DNA of 64,000 nucleotides from Escherichia phage vB_EcoS_ESCO40: sequence record NC_106514.1; one strand, given 5' to 3'. The translations under genes were made by a program, and so were the position numbers. Positions 12,087 to 23,336 of this stretch are shown piece after piece. Position 1 is the first letter of the stretch. Every line of letters begins with the position of its first letter. Under the pieces are notes generated by a model that was given only the letters and a program-made list of their open reading frames with translations, ran no database searches and had not been told where the DNA came from.

Positions 12087-12119
12087 AGCCAGGTTGCTAG
12101 TCGACCTGGCTTTTATTTT
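12087..12119 (+). terminator. rho-independent terminator after nrdD
   Basis: AGCCAGGT / ACCTGGCT 8-bp stem followed by TTTTATTTTA. Confidence 0.65.
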
Positions 12120-12178: not shown

Positions 12179-12460
12179 ATGAGCGAATTGCTTCCTAAAG
12201 TAGATGTTTCTCATCTTGGAGAGCCTAGTGAAGAACGTAAGGCTCTTGATTGGCTAGGTTACTTTGATTATCGTCGTGTTGTTGCAACATGGAATGATAA
12301 GAAAGTTAAGAAGTTTCGGGTACATTATGTAGGTAAAGACAAGTGGCTCTGGATTGATTATGAGGAATCGAAGGGGTCTACTAAGGCTGTGAAAATTTAT
12401 TGTATGTATGGGTATTATTATGCTCACTGTGATAAGAATGAATTTACAGTACAGAACTAA
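12179..12460 (+). CDS. hypothetical protein
   Basis: 93-aa ORF with GAGGAG site and own promoter. Confidence 0.55.
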   Translation: MSELLPKVDVSHLGEPSEERKALDWLGYFDYRRVVATWNDKKVKKFRVHYVGKDKWLWIDYEESKGSTKAVKIYCMYGYYYAHCDKNEFTVQN

Positions 12461-12469
12461 GGAACAAGA

Positions 12470-12700
12470 ATGAAAGACGTAAAACATCTTAAATATCGCT
12501 TAATCTATAATGGACGTATGGAAACTGAGGAGCTAGCTCAATTAGCTACTAACTCTAATGAGGTTATGGTGCGTGCGCTAGCAATTGAAAAGTTGCGTGC
12601 TTCTTATGAAAGTCGTATTATGCGACTGGAGGAAACCCTTTATGGACTTCTTGAATCAGAGGCTAAAAGTAACCCAGAGGATGGGCCTTCTAAGCAATAG
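12470..12700 (+). CDS. hypothetical protein
   Basis: 76-aa ORF with AAGGAA site, tightly packed after preceding gene. Confidence 0.5.
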   Translation: MKDVKHLKYRLIYNGRMETEELAQLATNSNEVMVRALAIEKLRASYESRIMRLEETLYGLLESEAKSNPEDGPSKQ

Positions 12701-12752
12701 AGGGTAACTTTACCCAAAATATTATCAAAGGACTCAAGAGAGGAATCATATA

Positions 12753-13589
12753 ATGCGTAGATTAATTATTATTAGTGGTGCAGGTTTGAGTGTTGAAAGT
12801 GGTGTACGAGCCTTCCGTACTGATACTGCTAGTGGTAAAGCATTGTGGGATGATTATGATCTAGAAGAGGTGTGTAATATTCATGCCTTTCGTGGTAATT
12901 TTTACCATAAAACTCACGCATTTTACAATAAACGTCGTGAAGAGTTAGAAACTGTTGAACCTAATCTTGCACACTTGCGTATTGGTGAATGGTATAAACA
13001 ATACCCAGGTCAGGTAGTAAACTTGACTACCAACGTTGATGACCTTATTGAGCGTGCTGGTGTTCCGCATAGTGACATTCTGCACATTCACGGATACTTA
13101 AAAGAGGTTGTTGTAGCTGATAGCTACAATAGTAGCAATAAACGAATTATTGATGTTGGGTATAGCTCTATTGACCCAGATGATTATAAGTGGGTTAAAC
13201 CTAATGTAATCTTCTTCGGAGAACATGCTCCAGCATACGCGGAGATGTACAATGTTTTTGATGGTATTACCAGTCAAGATATGATTGTGGTGGTTGGTTG
13301 CTCTAACCAAGTAATTAACTTCTACTGGGAATTATTCCCTGTTCTTAATCGGACTGCTGCGAAACTTATGGTAGTTAACTACTACGATAGTGCCTTAGCG
13401 GCGGAACCAGGCTATCAAGGTATGACTCGTAGTGATATGTACCAACTGGAAGATCGTGATATTCCTTACTGGAGTAAAGGTGCGGTAGATGCTTTCAGTG
13501 ACCCTGGTTTTATCGCTCGTGTAGAAGCTCATCTAGAGGGTAGACCTTATATGCCGGAGAGAAGGGGAAACAGATATGTCCATAGTTAA
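12753..13589 (+). CDS. Sir2-like (sirtuin-fold) NAD-binding protein lacking the zinc-ribbon module
   Basis: ISGAGLSVESGVRAFRTD (Rossmann NAD site), TTNVDDLIERAG and LHIHGYL (catalytic His region); no CxxC pairs. Confidence 0.6.
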   Translation: MRRLIIISGAGLSVESGVRAFRTDTASGKALWDDYDLEEVCNIHAFRGNFYHKTHAFYNKRREELETVEPNLAHLRIGEWYKQYPGQVVNLTTNVDDLIERAGVPHSDILHIHGYLKEVVVADSYNSSNKRIIDVGYSSIDPDDYKWVKPNVIFFGEHAPAYAEMYNVFDGITSQDMIVVVGCSNQVINFYWELFPVLNRTAAKLMVVNYYDSALAAEPGYQGMTRSDMYQLEDRDIPYWSKGAVDAFSDPGFIARVEAHLEGRPYMPERRGNRYVHS

Positions 13590-13758
13590 ATCTGTATATA
13601 CACATCCCGATGATATATTTGTATGGGCGGATGGTAGTTGGTGTTATCGTTGTGAGCTATGGGAAATGGACTATAAATCTGATGACTATGGTGTCATATA
13701 TGTTGATACGGTTGAGTATGATACGTTCTTAGCAAGGGACAAAAATGGAAATAAGTAA
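13576..13758 (+). CDS. hypothetical small protein
   Basis: 60-aa ORF, AAGGGGA site, overlaps both neighbours by a few codons. Confidence 0.4.
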   Translation: MSIVKSVYTHPDDIFVWADGSWCYRCELWEMDYKSDDYGVIYVDTVEYDTFLARDKNGNK

Positions 13759-14251
13759 TACTCCAATTATTTTTCTAGATATTGATGGGGTGCTCAACTC
13801 GAGCATCTCTCATCACCATGCACCTGATGATGAAAAGATTTTCTTTGGAAGTGACTGGGTTTTTAAACCGCTTCTCAAGGCTTTTCAGGACTTTATTCGT
13901 CCTTCTCCAATAATGATTGTTGGGGTATCTTCATGGTTCTCTGTCAGGAATGAGATGGAGAACGTTCAGATTATGACCGGATTAGATCTTATCGATCGTT
14001 TTCTTGGTACAACGGATTTTACTGGTGGTGGGCTATCTAGGGGTAATTCTGTTCTTCGCTTCGTTGAAAAGTATAAGCTCAAACATTGGTGTGTGCTGGA
14101 TGACGCTGGTGCTATGATGTATCAGTATCCAACGGTTATAGTCAATGGTAGAACTGGAATAAATCTTCAAGATTTAAGAGCTGTTAGCTATATGTTAGAA
14201 TTTAGTCCAGATCTTGAAATGTGTAAAGCCCTACAACAATTTAAGGTGTAA
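13745..14251 (+). CDS. HAD-superfamily phosphatase-like protein (possible nucleotidase)
   Basis: N-terminal IIFLDIDGVLN matches HAD motif I (DxDx[TV]); 168 aa. Confidence 0.55.
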   Translation: MEISNTPIIFLDIDGVLNSSISHHHAPDDEKIFFGSDWVFKPLLKAFQDFIRPSPIMIVGVSSWFSVRNEMENVQIMTGLDLIDRFLGTTDFTGGGLSRGNSVLRFVEKYKLKHWCVLDDAGAMMYQYPTVIVNGRTGINLQDLRAVSYMLEFSPDLEMCKALQQFKV

Positions 14252-14253
14252 AT

Positions 14254-14682
14254 ATGTTTAATAATGTATTCTCTAAAGAAGCTAACCCAATATTGGTTAA
14301 TTTTTGGCGTACTCTTCCAGACAACCTGTACAATGAGGCTATTAATGCCCTGAAAATATGGTGTGAGAATAATGAAATCTCCTTTGCTTTTAGAGGTGAG
14401 GTTGAAGAATCTCCCTGTATTGGTTTAATTGTGCAGGTAGAGGATGGTTTTGAAGAGATTGTCGGCTGGAAAGAGTTAGATGAAATGGGCTTGGTTTTTG
14501 CATTAAACTATAAGCTGTTTATGCCTAATAAACACCGTATTGTTGTTAACTATAAAACCAATGAATCTCCTGGTTTTCAAGTTAATGAACATTACGGTTG
14601 GTCTTACTCACCGGAAGAGGTAAATGATGGTATCCAGAAACTTCGTCGTTTTGGTTATCAGATTCCTGGTTTAACTGCCTAA
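14254..14682 (+). CDS. hypothetical protein, paralogue A of a tandem pair
   Basis: 142-aa ORF; shares blocks with the next ORF (SPCIGLIVQVEDG / WKELDEMGLVFALNYKLFMP / YQIPGLT). Confidence 0.55.
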   Translation: MFNNVFSKEANPILVNFWRTLPDNLYNEAINALKIWCENNEISFAFRGEVEESPCIGLIVQVEDGFEEIVGWKELDEMGLVFALNYKLFMPNKHRIVVNYKTNESPGFQVNEHYGWSYSPEEVNDGIQKLRRFGYQIPGLTA

Positions 14683-14691
14683 GGGGACACA

Positions 14692-15084
14692 ATGGAACAA
14701 GTATATTGGCGTCAGATTGATCCTAGTTTGGTGAAGCGTGCGGAGAAGCTGCTACAACGTTGGTTGGGGGTAAGACAAGCCTCCTTCACTTTTCCAGAGC
14801 AGCAAATAGATGATCCCTGTGTTGGTGTTTTCCTATCAGGCTACGCTAGGGAATGGGAATTGGATTGGAATGAATTGTCTGCTATGGGTTTAATTGTTGC
14901 ACTAAATTTCTCTTTGTTCCATCCACGTGGTTTGGCCATATGTCGTGTGCCTGGTGACGGTTGTTCGCCCCATCTTTTACAGGTGGAAGATGATATTTGG
15001 GAGTACACTCCAGGTATTCTCAAAGAAGCTAAAGAACAATTAAATCGTGTTGGAATCTATGTTCCGGGACTAAATGATGAATAA
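14692..15084 (+). CDS. hypothetical protein, paralogue B of a tandem pair
   Basis: 130-aa ORF; DPCVGVFLS / WNELSAMGLIVALNFSLFHP / HLLQVEDD / YVPGLN match paralogue A. Confidence 0.55.
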   Translation: MEQVYWRQIDPSLVKRAEKLLQRWLGVRQASFTFPEQQIDDPCVGVFLSGYAREWELDWNELSAMGLIVALNFSLFHPRGLAICRVPGDGCSPHLLQVEDDIWEYTPGILKEAKEQLNRVGIYVPGLNDE

Positions 15085-15268
15085 AGAATATTGGGTATGT
15101 TATGGTAAAATTAAAAAGTGGAATAAGGGTCAACTTTCCGCTAAACAAGTAAAATTTATGGCGAGATATTTGACTGATCCCACTTTCGATATTAAAAAGT
15201 TAAGTAGCTCAAACCGCGCTATTATACTTAAATTTGCTAATACTATTCGTGGTCTTTTTTATGATTAA
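15074..15268 (+). CDS. hypothetical small protein
   Basis: 64-aa ORF overlapping previous stop, followed by terminator. Confidence 0.4.
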   Translation: MMNKEYWVCYGKIKKWNKGQLSAKQVKFMARYLTDPTFDIKKLSSSNRAIILKFANTIRGLFYD

Positions 15269-15275
15269 TCCGTAT

Positions 15276-15302
15276 AACCGAGTCATTTTGGCTCGGTTTT
15301 CT
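15276..15302 (+). terminator. rho-independent terminator
   Basis: AACCGAG / CTCGGTT stem followed by TTTTCTCT. Confidence 0.6.
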
Positions 15303-21174: not shown

Positions 21175-21390
21175 ATGAGAGGATCAATCATGGCAATGAC
21201 AGTAACACTTCCCAAGATTCAAGCAAAACTTAATCTACTTTCCACAGCACGTATTAATTATCAAGATAGCATAGGCACAGTAAATCAAAAAGCGTACAAA
21301 GATGCGTTTCTGAAAGAATCTGCTGATTTGATGGATATGGTTACACAATATAATAAAGAACTCAAGATGGAAATCGCCGATGATGAATAA
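21175..21390 (+). CDS. hypothetical small protein
   Basis: 71-aa ORF with GAGAGGA site; overlaps the ligase start. Confidence 0.5.
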   Translation: MRGSIMAMTVTLPKIQAKLNLLSTARINYQDSIGTVNQKAYKDAFLKESADLMDMVTQYNKELKMEIADDE

Positions 21391-22354
21391 TGTAAAAGGC
21401 TTTATTAGGCGTTGTCAAGAAGCATATTATCAAGGCATGTCTTTAATCTCTGATGAGGAGTATGATTGCCTGGTAAAACGCTTCCCGTTAGAAGAAGAGA
21501 TCGGGCCTAAAGGTGATATTCCACATCTGTATCGTATGTATTCTTTACAGAAAGTTTATTATAATCGTGGAGATAAACCCCCATTTAACCCCTTAGGTCA
21601 GGTAGAAACTGATAAGTTAGATGGTTGTGCAATTTCTCTGTTATATATTAACGGCGAATTTGTCCAAGCATTAACCCGTGGTAATGGTATTCTAGGGAAT
21701 GATGTCACAAGCAACGTAAGATTGCTGAACATTCCTAAAAAGATTTCCCAAAAAGTACCTACTCAAATCACTGGTGAAGTTCTAATTACAAAAGAAGTAG
21801 AAAATAAACGTAACTTTGCCTCTGGTGCTATTAACCTCAAAGATAGTGATGATTTCGTACAACGCATTGGAGAAGGCGGTTTAATCTTTGTTGCTTACGG
21901 TATCCAATGTTCTGCTGAATCTGTAGGTATTACAGAAGCATACTTAAAAGATATGCTTTGGCTAGAGAATGAGAACTTCTTAACAGTTGTTAATGTGCGT
22001 TCCTTCTTTAAATGGATTCCGACGGACGGTAAAGTTGTTCGTATTAATGACAACAACAAATTCTTCCGTGAAGGCTGGACTAATAAATTCCCTCGTGGAG
22101 CATTCGCTATTAAAGAGGATGAAGAAGGCGAAATTACAACTCTTACTAAAGTTGAATGGCAGGTAGGGGCTTCTGGTAAAGTAACTCCAGTTGGTTATTT
22201 CGAACCGGTAATTATTGATGATGCTACAATTGTTAAGGCGACTCTTAATAACGTTGATTATATTAACTCTCTCGATCTAGAGATCGGTTGCCAGATTCGA
22301 GTGATTCGTGCTGGTGGTGTAATCCCGTGCATAGTAGAGCGAGTATACGATTAA
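21380..22354 (+). CDS. ligA: NAD-dependent DNA ligase, N-terminal (adenylation/OB) half
   Basis: KLDG adenylation-lysine motif (ETDKLDGCAISLLY), TRGNGILGNDVT; ORF ends before the Zn-finger/HhH/BRCT part. Confidence 0.75.
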   Translation: MMNNVKGFIRRCQEAYYQGMSLISDEEYDCLVKRFPLEEEIGPKGDIPHLYRMYSLQKVYYNRGDKPPFNPLGQVETDKLDGCAISLLYINGEFVQALTRGNGILGNDVTSNVRLLNIPKKISQKVPTQITGEVLITKEVENKRNFASGAINLKDSDDFVQRIGEGGLIFVAYGIQCSAESVGITEAYLKDMLWLENENFLTVVNVRSFFKWIPTDGKVVRINDNNKFFREGWTNKFPRGAFAIKEDEEGEITTLTKVEWQVGASGKVTPVGYFEPVIIDDATIVKATLNNVDYINSLDLEIGCQIRVIRAGGVIPCIVERVYD

Positions 22355-22404
22355 TACATAACCCTTTGCTACCCATCTACCATATCGGAATTATAAAGTG
22401 GTTA

Positions 22405-22433
22405 TTGACATTTTCGCCGCTTAGGTATATACT
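22405..22433 (+). promoter_or_regulatory. sigma70-type promoter (TTGACA-17-TATACT) inside the ligase spacer
   Basis: TTGACA 22405-22410, TATACT 22428-22433; followed by an 8-codon mini-ORF (ATG GCG AGG GTA AGC AAA GTT AGT TAA). Confidence 0.5.
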
Positions 22434-22497
22434 ATTATCATTCAGTTGAGGGATAGAAAGTTATGGCGAGGGTAAGCAAAGTTAGTTAAAATTGTAG

Positions 22498-22526
22498 TTG
22501 CTAAATGCTTAAATACTTGCTATAAT
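22498..22526 (+). promoter_or_regulatory. sigma70-type early promoter (TTGCTA-17-TATAAT)
   Basis: TTGCTA 22498-22503, TATAAT 22521-22526, then ATTTATATAAATTGATAAGGAAG. Confidence 0.65.
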
Positions 22527-22556
22527 ATTTATATAAATTGATAAGGAAGAAATTTG

Positions 22557-23336
22557 ATGAAAATCGAAATTCCAACACAATGTCCCTCTTGTGGTTCTAA
22601 GCTAGATCTTGTCAACGGACAATTATTCTGTCGTAATAAGTCCAACTGTCCAGCGCAATCAAGTAAGTTAATTGAGAACTTCTGTACAAAAATGAAGTTA
22701 AAGGGCTTTGGCCCGAAAACTATTGAGAAGCTGGAGCTGACGAAGATTTCAGAACTATTTTACCTAACCGAAGAAGATTTGGTTAGAGCCGTGGGTAGCA
22801 AGGTTGCCGCTAAGTTAATTAGCGAATTAAATACTAAAGTTCGCGGAGACATTGACTTTGGTTCAGTTCTCGGTTCTTTAGGAATCCCTCTAATTGGAGA
22901 GGTTGCAGCAAAGAAATTGTCCCAAAATTGCACCAGTTTTCAAGATGTGAGAGCTGATGGCAAAGCTGGAGAAAATTATAAAGCCTGGCTAAATTCCCCA
23001 CAAGGCAAGGATGTTATCGAATTACCGTGGAAATTCACAACTGGTATTAAAGGTGCTAAAGCTGGGGTCATCATTACTGATGGTCTAGTAGCCCAGCCAA
23101 ATGGAATCACGGTGTGTATTACCGGGTCTTTGCAAGATTTTGCAAATAGAACGGATGCAACAAATTATTTAGAAGGTCTAGGGTATACTGTTAAAAAATC
23201 AGTTACCAAAGACGTTAAATACCTAATCTGTGAGGATGAATCGAAGCGTTCTTCCTCATCTTATAAGAAAGCCGAAACGAATGGGATAGAAATCCTGTCG
23301 ATTAAAGAACTATTGGAGAAAAATAATAATGTCTAA
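22557..23336 (+). CDS. ligA: NAD-dependent DNA ligase, C-terminal (zinc-finger/HhH/BRCT) half
   Basis: four-Cys zinc finger CPSCGSKLDLVNGQLFCRNKSNCPAQ and HhH-like KLKGFGPKTIEKL; ATG 22557 with AAGGAAG site. Confidence 0.7.
   Translation: MKIEIPTQCPSCGSKLDLVNGQLFCRNKSNCPAQSSKLIENFCTKMKLKGFGPKTIEKLELTKISELFYLTEEDLVRAVGSKVAAKLISELNTKVRGDIDFGSVLGSLGIPLIGEVAAKKLSQNCTSFQDVRADGKAGENYKAWLNSPQGKDVIELPWKFTTGIKGAKAGVIITDGLVAQPNGITVCITGSLQDFANRTDATNYLEGLGYTVKKSVTKDVKYLICEDESKRSSSSYKKAETNGIEILSIKELLEKNNNV

Follow-up and report, generated by a model that had tools for sequence, protein, structure and literature searches.

The phage sirtuin clade was defined by Iyer, Burroughs, Anantharaman and Aravind in 2022 (Viruses 14:1977; PMC9503650), who predicted a role in RNA repair (section 3.7.3). 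In their neighbourhood type 3, found in Escherichia phage SP15, the sirtuin is accompanied by a Swiss-army-knife HAD phosphatase. The locus analysed here carries the identical gene and the same HAD_SAK_2 (PF18143) neighbour in a T5-like phage; it differs in nothing essential and is one further member of the clade. Both the Sir2–HAD pairing and the RNA-repair prediction are already published (PMC9503650), and the Sir2 gene, which hundreds of phage genome annotations already list as 'Sir2-like protein', is a re-discovery and not a new element. Beyond Iyer et al., we add family-wide figures for zinc loss and for a Gln-to-Thr substitution, natural Sir2–HAD deletions and the occurrence of HAD_SAK_2 in NARP1-like operons. 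No biochemical or genetic study of the sirtuin of T5 or of the phage clade was found in the literature.

Viral Sir2/CobB proteins were also described from the Vibrio 'schizoT4-like' phages KVP40, phiSt2 and phiGrn1 by Skliros et al. (2016, PMC5107563), who listed T5 Sir2 as a homolog. These proteins (approximately 40% identity by tblastn) are likewise CobB-like with replaced zinc ligands, for which the authors proposed salt bridges, but they belong to another phage lineage and an NAD salvage context. Deacetylation of Acs was favoured as their function, in silico only (PMC5107563). The SIR2 NADases of bacterial defence systems (ThsA, DSR1/2, SIR2-HerA/Nezha, SPARSA and Avs5; SIR2_2 or 'SIRim') resemble the phage protein in the Rossmann-type SIR2 fold, the missing zinc tetrathiolate and the expected consumption of NAD. 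With Tpt1/KptA, together with Poa1p and Adpp, the possible analogy is one of context logic, namely NAD-dependent removal of an RNA phosphate followed by a phosphatase. The Tpt1 fold is unrelated to Sir2, and phage Adpp is a Macro domain, whereas the partner here is a HAD protein.

The analysed stretch of 64,000 nucleotides (the window) derives from a T5-like phage with 95% identity to BF23. The Sir2 gene lies in its early region, in an operon of small genes on the + strand (12179-15268) flanked by terminators, with nrdD on one side and the origin-binding protein gene on the other. The operon comprises the following features:

12087..12111, +, terminator-like hairpin 3' of nrdD (10-bp stem with 6 GC pairs, then a T-run)
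12179..12460, +, operon ORF 1, 93 aa (PHROG 7953, E 2.6e-64)
12470..12700, +, operon ORF 2, 76 aa (PHROG 5236, E 9.4e-43)
12753-13589, +, Sir2-like ORF, 278 aa (ATG at 12753, stop ending at 13589)
13576..13758, +, orf60, 60 aa (PHROG 5116, E 3.4e-29)
13745..14251, +, HAD_SAK_2 phosphatase, 168 aa (PF18143, 70 bits)
14254..14682, +, DUF7415 protein a, 142 aa, two DUF7415 repeats (PF24187, 107.8 bits, 2 stretches)
14692..15084, +, DUF7415 protein b, 130 aa (PF24187, 106.8 bits), same operon as protein a
15276..15298, +, terminator-like hairpin at the operon 3' end (10-bp stem)

The hairpin at 12087..12111 is the upstream limit of the operon; at the equivalent place the BF23 annotation has a terminator together with an early-promoter prediction, and at the place equivalent to 15276..15298 a terminator. 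Because a promoter scan was not enriched over shuffled sequences (10 found, 12.3 expected), the operon limits rest on the terminators and the BF23 annotation. The original prediction of a 278-aa Sir2-like ORF standing alone among small early genes beside a HAD phosphatase was borne out by the start and stop codons, a ribosome-binding site (GAGAGGA, 8 nt 5' of the start) and the Pfam matches of both proteins. As read from the sequence, orf60 shares 14 nt with the end of the Sir2 gene and another 14 nt with the beginning of the HAD gene, which suggests translational coupling of the three genes; the HAD start lies 156 nt 3' of the Sir2 stop. Among T5-like loci, ORF 1, for which a Pfam search gave no match, was found in 16. 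ORF 2 is directly 5' of Sir2 in 29 loci, and orf60 adjoins Sir2 in 29, two of which are non-T5 contigs without HAD. The DUF7415 proteins are tandem paralogs, both matching PHROG 2502. A tRNA scan of the window found none, and there is therefore no local tRNA link.

The Sir2 ORF matched Pfam PF02146 (SIR2) over practically the whole domain (profile positions 1-178 of 180) with 86.6 bits and E 2.7e-24, against a curated gathering score of 24 bits, and matched PHROG 2162 with E 1.7e-119, values that leave no room for a chance match. The predicted structure was confident and sirtuin-like. All three predicted sirtuin signatures were present: GAGLSVESGVRAFRTD (aa 9-24), TNVDDLIERAG (aa 93-103) and LHIHG (aa 110-114). 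The main elements of the protein map to the window as follows:

12777..12791, +, GAGLS, NAD-binding glycine-rich motif (aa 9-13); G9, A10, G11 and S13 invariant in 70-121 family members
13026..13043, +, TTNVDD motif (aa 92-97); T93, N94, V95 and D96 invariant
13089..13091, +, codon of catalytic His113, invariant (121/121) and aligned with the CobB catalytic His
13092..13196, +, three-stranded small-domain insert (aa 114-148), zinc-ribbon equivalent without Cys ligands (0 Cys)
13212..13223, +, FFGE motif (aa 154-157), canonical sirtuin substrate/NAD loop; F154, F155 and E157 invariant

Invariance in the family extended to F21, R22, G182, S184 and N209. With the Rossmann NAD pocket (GAGxS), the nicotinamide-pocket residues N94 and D96 and the catalytic His all in place, the residues mark the protein, as judged from its sequence, as a real NAD-using sirtuin type. 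The class III Y-x-x-R pair (Y58, R61) was invariant too and aligned with the CobB motif FYNARR. Two positions departed from the canonical pattern: the Gln of TQN[IV]D was Thr93 in 121/121 sequences, and the post-GTS V-x-P substrate loop had no Pro (GCSNQVINF). Loss of this Pro was dropped as a sign that the protein is no peptide deacylase, as 46 zinc-containing relatives had it and 47 did not. With a pI of 5.46 the protein is acidic, as is the family (median 5.2).

The absence of the zinc-module Cys pairs, also predicted originally, held for the window protein and across the family. Its only two cysteines, C41 and C183, lie outside the insert, and the four Cys of the aligned CobB segment are replaced by V121, Y145, W147 and V148. 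Among 120 homologs, the insert contained no Cys in 66, one in 50 and two in 4, and neither CxxC nor CxC in any. The predicted structure kept the three-strand topology without zinc ligands (strands 114-122, 131-134 and 147-152; pLDDT 90-97), and the insert contained a conserved (D/N)[IV]GY motif. The zinc ribbon has probably been swapped for a metal-free hydrophobic mini-sheet. Thr at the TQN[IV]D Gln position and loss of zinc went together across 150 representatives (33/10 versus 13/77; Fisher p 2.6e-12, uncorrected for phylogeny).

The phage Sir2 is kin to protein deacylases and not to the NAD-destroying defence enzymes of bacteria. E. coli CobB was the top match in both sequence (E 4.9e-18) and structure (TM 0.85), and the further top matches, SIRT5, Sir2Af1/2, Sir2Tm and SIRT1-4, were all deacylases. 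With CobB and human SIRT5 the protein shares GAGxS, the FR loop, the nicotinamide-pocket Asn and Asp, the catalytic His, FGE, GxS and Y-x-x-R. It differs from them in the missing zinc cysteines, Thr for the conserved Gln, the lost V-x-P Pro, a 4-residue insertion in the cofactor loop and extra C-terminal helices, at 22-24% identity. In the Pfam comparison of SIR2 with SIR2_2, only PF02146 was matched. Kinship with defence effectors was rejected: the PADLOC defence models gave no SIR2 match to the ORF at E <= 1. Defence SIR2s were not among the closest structural neighbours. No SLOG, HerA, pAgo/APAZ, STAND or TIR partner was fused or adjacent, the neighbours being small ORFs, HAD_SAK_2 and DUF7415 proteins.

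Sir2 homologs were detected in 976 of 50,697 phage genome records (approximately 2%), including the model phage T5, and the gene belongs to a large clade on phages and phage-sized contigs. HAD_SAK_2 is its conserved partner in T5-like phages, lying within 0.1-2.4 kb of Sir2 in five T5-like clusters (32 loci) and in three layouts: Sir2-orf60-HAD as in the window, HAD-x-Sir2 in Erwinia phage KEY, and the two genes 2.4 kb apart in locus L062. In six clusters of rV5/Mydo-like phages, the order was Metallophos, T4 Rnl1 RNA ligase, cREC, AAA_33 kinase and SIR2, reproducing the type 2 context of Iyer et al. (Rnl1, cREC, kinase and calcineurin-like phosphoesterase). The sirtuins of this Rnl1 cassette are orthologs with 50-63% identity to the window protein. 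On a 608-kb megaphage contig, the gene for a 36%-identical sirtuin has an Rnl1 ligase gene 1.2 kb upstream. In the syntenic slot of phage ChuuTotoro, Sir2, Rnl1, kinase, metallophosphatase and cREC were jointly absent, the scan for a sirtuin covering the first 50 kb of this genome. Linkage of Sir2 to nucleic-acid end-processing genes recurs across lineages, synteny among related phages not being independent evidence. Approximately 11 of 25 Sir2 clusters had no end-processing gene nearby. In phi92-like and jumbo phages, the Pfam matches of the neighbours were DUFs only, bar Rnl1 in locus L065 and a nucleoside 2-deoxyribosyltransferase-like gene adjoining the sirtuin in L063; the phi92-like neighbours include DUF7275/7277 and further proteins of 168-227 aa. 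In the 64-kb window itself, no homolog of Rnl1, kinase, metallophosphatase, cREC, NADAR or Prs was found.

A second set of neighbours concerns NAD. NADAR and NARP1-like genes flank the sirtuin of rV5-like phages. In ECO340P2, a gene for an Acb2/Tad1-like sponge is found 4 kb upstream of the sirtuin gene. HAD_SAK_2 was also found as the first gene of operons that continue with Prs-like and Nampt-like genes, an arrangement known from NARP1, with no sirtuin within 6 kb. NARP1 operons recruit an ADPR-1''P phosphatase (bioRxiv 10.64898/2026.01.28.702374).

We tentatively read Sir2–HAD as an accessory NAD-consuming module for RNA-end repair, a reading that we hold with somewhat less than even confidence. 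The Sir2 protein, probably an active, NAD+-consuming enzyme that belongs with the canonical CobB/SIRT5-like sirtuins, would be expressed from the T5 early operon and coupled through the 60-aa ORF to a capless HAD phosphatase, the pair acting as an accessory RNA-repair or NAD/ADPR module. It would move ADP-ribose from NAD+ onto the phosphate of a damaged RNA end, for example the 2'-phosphate left by a metal-independent (anticodon) nuclease, releasing nicotinamide and phosphorylated ADP-ribose as Tpt1/KptA does. The HAD protein would act in one of two ways, by removing the phosphate from the RNA end or by dephosphorylating the by-product ADPR-phosphate, the latter in parallel with yeast Poa1p and the Macro-domain Adpp of phage NARP1-AP operons. 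Sealing of the RNA in T5-like phages may be left to a host ligase. The more specific form of this idea is doubtful: here Sir2-orf60-HAD would be a self-contained NAD-fuelled repair module, with a sirtuin that acts on a nucleic-acid phosphate and not on acyl-lysine as an analogue of Tpt1, and a HAD protein that clears the RNA-end or ADPR-1''-phosphate product, shielding T5-like phages from host defences that cleave RNA or phosphorolyse NAD. In favour of RNA repair are the intact enzyme residues, the confident sirtuin-like model, the context in independent lineages, the link of HAD_SAK_2 to ADPR recycling through NARP1-like operons, the prediction reached independently by Iyer et al., and the joint loss of Sir2 and HAD in phages Bas34 and DT57C together with the sensitivity of Bas34 to OLD and PARIS. 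Against it stand the closeness of the domain to deacylases with the acidic acyl-lysine pair Y58/R61 kept, a window without RNA ligase, kinase or metallophosphatase, the clusters without end-processing context, the attribution of the Bas34 phenotypes to tRNA loss and the chemistry of OLD and AriB. Tpt1 is a basic protein and the phage Sir2 acidic, so direct RNA binding is mildly disfavoured. We know of no sirtuin that has been demonstrated to act on RNA.

The main rival is a CobB-like lysine deacylase (deacetylase, desuccinylase or similar) that remodels the acylation of host or phage proteins soon after infection begins, beside or instead of host CobB, with zinc loss a mere structural simplification. 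We regard this as possible, though less likely than not. Besides the top matches to deacylases, it draws on the invariance of the catalytic residues, FFGE and Y58-x-x-R61, on a small-domain fold kept without zinc, and on the like argument of Skliros et al. for the Vibrio proteins (PMC5107563). The NCBIfam deacylase models were the best matches too, but scored far under their cut-offs (NF001753, 102 bits versus 243; NF040867, 91 bits versus 320); moreover, the TQN[IV]D Gln is an invariant Thr and the V-x-P Pro is absent. The host supplies a CobB of its own, it is hard to see what a HAD phosphatase would do with O-acyl-ADPR, and a deacylase leaves unexplained why genes for RNA ligase, kinase and phosphatase recur near the sirtuin. 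A counter-defence role in which Sir2 and HAD work as a pair on small NAD/ADPR molecules is unlikely; they would convert or destroy NAD-derived immune signals or toxic products, or channel NAD breakdown products to recycling, with no RNA substrate. The NARP1-type operons led by HAD_SAK_2, the NADAR and NARP1-like neighbours in rV5-like phages, the Acb2/Tad1-like and deoxyribosyltransferase-like genes, and dispensability on laboratory hosts, which is usual for counter-defence genes, point that way; yet Rnl1, kinase and metallophosphatase genes accompany the sirtuin more often, and more closely, than NAD-salvage genes do, and the T5-like window has no NARP genes. We are not aware of any canonical-type sirtuin that acts on NAD-derived immune signals. 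A protein ADP-ribosyltransferase with SirTM/SIRT6-like chemistry, modifying a host factor or defence protein, is less likely still; no SirTM-type macrodomain partner, operonic or fused, was found for the phage Sir2. Least credible is an NADase that drains host NAD+ so as to shut off the host or exclude superinfecting phages; its host-takeover form led the original prediction. A zinc-less standalone domain and the basal NAD glycohydrolase activity of sirtuins speak for it, but the phage has its own NAD-dependent DNA ligase gene (window 21380-23336) and sirtuin-bearing relatives have NAD-rebuilding genes adjacent to the sirtuin, which makes it very improbable.

If RNA repair were the function, sirtuin chemistry would reach nucleic-acid phosphates, and T5-like phages would gain a second protective layer against RNA-targeting immunity beside their tRNA genes. 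A Tpt1-like sirtuin would be the first sirtuin acting on RNA, and HAD_SAK_2 could be assigned a function, that of an ADPR-phosphate phosphatase without a Macro domain that feeds NARP1. Were the protein a deacylase, phages would edit the host acylome.

Two independent natural deletions, in phages Bas34 and DT57C, each take out Sir2 and HAD jointly. Both phages are viable, and Sir2–HAD is dispensable on laboratory E. coli. Bas34 was the sole Tequintavirus restricted by the tRNase OLD and was also sensitive to PARIS. The authors who reported these Bas34 phenotypes put them down to missing tRNA genes, and tRNAs rescued the phage. OLD and AriB are Toprim nucleases, which need metal and would not be expected to leave ends with a cyclic phosphate. 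Bas34 is therefore confounded as a natural knockout, because its tRNA set is reduced and restoring tRNAs is sufficient for rescue. The deletion phages sit in widely used collections, which makes the question of function cheap to test, and the deletions may be an unrecognised confounder of published defence screens. Among the other T5-like BASEL phages looked at, Sir2 was intact in Bas32 and HAD in Bas27.

The 278-codon open reading frame (ORF) at 12753-13589 (+) starts with ATG behind the ribosome-binding site GAGAGGA and encodes all three sirtuin motifs quoted in the original prediction. Its product, Sir2, matched the SIR2 profile PF02146 end to end (86.6 bits, E 2.7e-24; Pfam) and PHROG 2162 'Sir2 (NAD-dependent deacetylase)' (E 1.7e-119). 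The adjacent gene, proposed to be HAD phosphatase-like, was identified as PF18143 (HAD_SAK_2), 'HAD domain in Swiss Army Knife RNA repair proteins' (70 bits, Pfam). Based on the annotation of Escherichia phage BF23 and a terminator scan, Sir2 was located in a compact plus-strand operon of the T5 early region, with nrdD on one side and the gene of the replication-origin-binding protein on the other:

12087-12111, terminator at the operon start
between this terminator and Sir2, + strand, two small ORFs
12753-13589, + strand, Sir2
13576-13758, + strand, 60-aa ORF (PHROG 5116) between Sir2 and HAD
13745-14251, + strand, HAD (PF18143)
14254-14682 and 14692-15084, + strand, two tandem DUF7415 paralogs with two DUF7415 repeats in each
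after the DUF7415 paralogs, + strand, 64-aa ORF, the last gene
15276-15298, terminator at the operon end

The 60-aa ORF shares 14 nt with the Sir2 stop and 14 nt with the HAD start, which suggests translational coupling of the three genes, and it may be a partner of Sir2 rather than filler. The same ORF was observed 3' of Sir2 in contigs L038 and L041, with a metallophosphatase in place of HAD, and in L058/59, without HAD. The DUF7415 pair was retained beside Sir2 in 33 T5-like loci, including the HAD-less L055 and L058/59.

The Sir2 gene is already annotated and widely distributed in phages, and its zinc-less state and HAD partnership are already in the literature. Megablast recovered the gene from 233 phage records, every one T5-like (Demerecviridae), with BF23 as the closest match (95.3%, annotated 'Sir2-like protein'). 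Homologs were detected by tblastn in 976 of 50,697 phage records. Likely annotation errors were a Sir2 ortholog called 'tail assembly protein' in Klebsiella phage vB_Kpn_3 and an 'endolysin' over the Sir2 match in vB_Kpn_K18PH07C1. The short records 'Listeria phage LM 4-14-1' and 'Campylobacter phage C2', with Enterobacteria-phage-like Sir2 genes (95% and 58% identity), are likely labelled wrongly.

Sir2 has two cysteines (C41 and C183), neither of which lies in the small-domain insert (aa 114-148). In an alignment to E. coli CobB, V121, Y145, W147 and V148 stand where CobB has the four cysteines of this segment. The predicted absence of the zinc-module cysteine pairs held across 120 homologs (49-94% identity, contigs all ≤ ~154 kb, named members all phages): the insert contained no cysteine in 66, one in 50 and two in 4, and CxxC in none. 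Invariant in this set were the NAD-pocket and catalytic residues G9, A10, G11, S13, F21, R22, N94, D96 and H113, together with F154, F155, E157, G182, S184 and N209, and the class III pair Y58 and R61. The Gln of TQN[IV]D was replaced by an invariant Thr93 (codon 13029-13031). Very likely, Sir2 is enzymatically active and uses NAD. When 1.84 billion representatives were searched exhaustively, 43 matches below 1e-30 and 780 below 1e-10 were obtained, forming a graded continuum. The nearest representatives had no zinc cysteines and the motif TTNVDD, while the farther ones were small sirtuins of 230-260 aa in which CxxC...CxxC and TQN[IV]D were present again; the family is thus an offshoot of canonical small sirtuins that lacks the zinc site. 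Among 150 representatives, the Thr93-type replacement tracked the loss of zinc cysteines (33/10 vs 13/77, Fisher p 2.6e-12, kinship ignored). A (D/N)[IV]GY-type small-domain motif occurred in about a third of the farther zinc-type sirtuins (35/93), compared with 31/53 zinc-less ones.

The AlphaFold model of Sir2 was confident (pLDDT 90.2, pTM 0.88), with the cofactor-binding loop as its only weak region, and it kept the three-stranded sheet that in canonical sirtuins holds the zinc (strands 114-122, 131-134 and 147-152, pLDDT 90-97). In structure comparisons, canonical sirtuins (Sir2Af1, PfSir2A, SIRT1, SIRT4, SIRT2, Hst2) scored 15.8-20.7, the ADP-ribosylating SirTM 14.4, and defence SIR2 NADases (PsSIR2, HerA-Sir2, ThsA, Avs5) 9.3-13.3. 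Neither the SIR2 models of PADLOC nor Pfam SIR2_2 matched the protein. Since the structural likeness is to canonical sirtuins and these defence models were unmatched, the step from zinc-less to defence-type NADase was not supported; the original observation was correct, its interpretation only partly right.

According to Iyer et al. 2022 (PMC9503650, section 3.7.3), the majority of viral sirtuins belong to a distinct clade, predicted to be KptA/Tpt1-like and to act in RNA repair. Three neighbourhood types were described for it, and type 3, in which the sirtuin of T5-like phage SP15 lies beside a Swiss-army-knife HAD phosphatase (PMC9503650), corresponds to the Sir2-HAD locus of the window. Replacement of the zinc ligands was reported for Vibrio-phage Sir2/CobB proteins, with T5 Sir2 listed among the homologs (Skliros et al. 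2016, PMC5107563). In some GenBank and UniRef records, the HAD is already named 'RNA repair protein'. A literature search for experiments on any member of the phage clade found no study.

We collected 66 loci, searched all ORFs with iterated HMMs seeded from neighbour proteins, and grouped the sirtuins into 25 clusters at 80% identity. HAD_SAK_2 was present within 0.1-2.4 kb in five clusters, all T5-like, in three arrangements including a reversed HAD-x-Sir2 in Erwinia phage KEY. Six clusters, from rV5/Mydo-like myoviruses, had a metallophosphatase, a T4 Rnl1 RNA ligase, sometimes cREC, and an AAA_33 kinase 0-3 kb upstream of Sir2; two had the metallophosphatase only, and one, on a 608-kb contig (sirtuin 36% identity), had Rnl1 1.2 kb upstream. 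About 11 of the 25 had no end-processing neighbour within a few kb, among them phi92-like phages, where the neighbours were DUF7275/7277 and unknown proteins only. In the syntenic slot of Serratia phage ChuuTotoro, Sir2, Rnl1, kinase, metallophosphatase and cREC were jointly absent. From these counts and this joint absence, we conclude that the sirtuin is genuinely linked to genes for end healing and sealing, repeatedly and in phage lineages unrelated to each other, although not everywhere. Within the 64-kb window, RNA ligase, kinase and metallophosphatase genes were all absent. The sirtuin of phi92-like phages lies directly 3' of a conserved DUF7277/DUF7275 gene and of three genes for unknown proteins (168-227 aa); in one such phage, Escherichia phage ECO340P2, an Acb2/Tad1-hairpin (signal-sponge) gene was located 4 kb upstream (L005 1940-2215). 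On jumbo contigs, distant sirtuin homologs lie near a nucleoside 2-deoxyribosyltransferase-like gene on a 279-kb contig (L063 8713-9195) and beside the Rnl1-type ligase and an arginase-family gene on the 608-kb contig (L065 5582-7720).

The HAD retained all catalytic motifs, and its confident model (pLDDT 94.6) was most similar to MDP-1 and Scp1, two capless HADs. In such HADs the active site is open, which suits bulky substrates. In ChuuTotoro-like myoviruses, ~150-kb Vequintavirinae-like phages, HAD_SAK_2 is the leading gene of an operon that also encodes Prs-like and Nampt-like proteins (L068 6001-9217, L069 6001-9519 and, in ChuuTotoro, L070 35888-39104), followed in ChuuTotoro by a 22-tRNA array. 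No sirtuin was found within 6 kb of these operons. Their layout is that of the NAD-reconstitution pathway NARP1 (PMC13586617, PMC12774641), whose operons recruit a Macro-domain phosphatase converting ADPR-1''-phosphate to ADPR (bioRxiv 10.64898/2026.01.28.702374); its yeast counterpart, Poa1p, acts downstream of Tpt1. The NARP1-like operon and the distance from any sirtuin suggest a possible role of HAD_SAK_2 as an ADPR-phosphate phosphatase of non-Macro type. A Tpt1-like sirtuin acting first, followed by the HAD as ADPR-phosphate phosphatase, would explain the RNA-repair and NAD-rebuilding contexts together.

We therefore tentatively read Sir2-HAD as an RNA-end repair/ADPR module, which is quite possible though short of probable: it accounts for the gene contexts, but Sir2 is acidic (pI 5.46) and T5-like phages lack the ligase. 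Every likeness of sequence and structure, plus the Y-x-x-R pair, points instead to a putative CobB-like deacylase; this activity would account for none of the gene contexts, Sir2 falls below the NCBIfam cut-offs, and we consider it rather unlikely. Small-molecule NAD/ADPR counter-defence would fit the NARP1-like, NADAR and Acb2/Tad1-like neighbours, but is without precedent and improbable. Protein ADP-ribosylation, which sirtuin chemistry permits, is more doubtful still, as the macrodomain partner is absent. The standalone, zinc-less domain had also suggested NAD depletion for host takeover; this is very improbable, given that the phage has its own NAD-dependent DNA ligase (window 21380-23336) and that NAD-rebuilding genes adjoin the sirtuin in relatives. 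The ligase is encoded by two genes, ligA and ligB (21380-22354 and 22557-23336), a split shared with BF23 and T5; both lie in the early region, which also contains the gene of the NAD-consuming sirtuin.

Two viable T5-like phages carried independent deletions inactivating both Sir2 and HAD. SelmaRatti (BASEL Bas34; MZ501103) had a 1,042-bp deletion corresponding to window 13063-14104, which created an in-frame fusion of Sir2 residues 1-103 with HAD residues ~121-168, joined at an ERAG/DDAG microhomology, and removed His113 and the HAD DxD motif. DT57C (NC_027356) had two different deletions (window 12747-13245 and 13389-14111). The module is thus dispensable on laboratory E. coli and has been lost whole on at least two occasions. 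Being present in model phage T5 and in ~2% of the phage genomes sequenced, with a function that is only predicted and natural deletion strains at hand, this already annotated gene is worth more as an experimental opportunity than as a discovery. Among Tequintaviruses, Bas34 alone was reported to be restricted by the tRNase OLD, and it is also PARIS-sensitive; the authors of these findings attributed both to missing tRNA genes, and tRNA expression rescues, so that these sensitivities are only a confounded hint to a role of Sir2-HAD. Many defence screens use Bas34 without mentioning the loss of Sir2-HAD.

PHROG 18062 (92 aa), also named 'Sir2 (NAD-dependent deacetylase)', matched the HAD protein (E 1e-57), and Sir2 over a short stretch only, covering window 13257-13400 (Sir2 aa 169-216) and 13973-14248 (HAD aa 77-168). 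It appears to have been built from deletion chimeras, and intact HAD genes are consequently mislabelled as Sir2 in several GenBank records, e.g. SSP1, Stitch and SE24.
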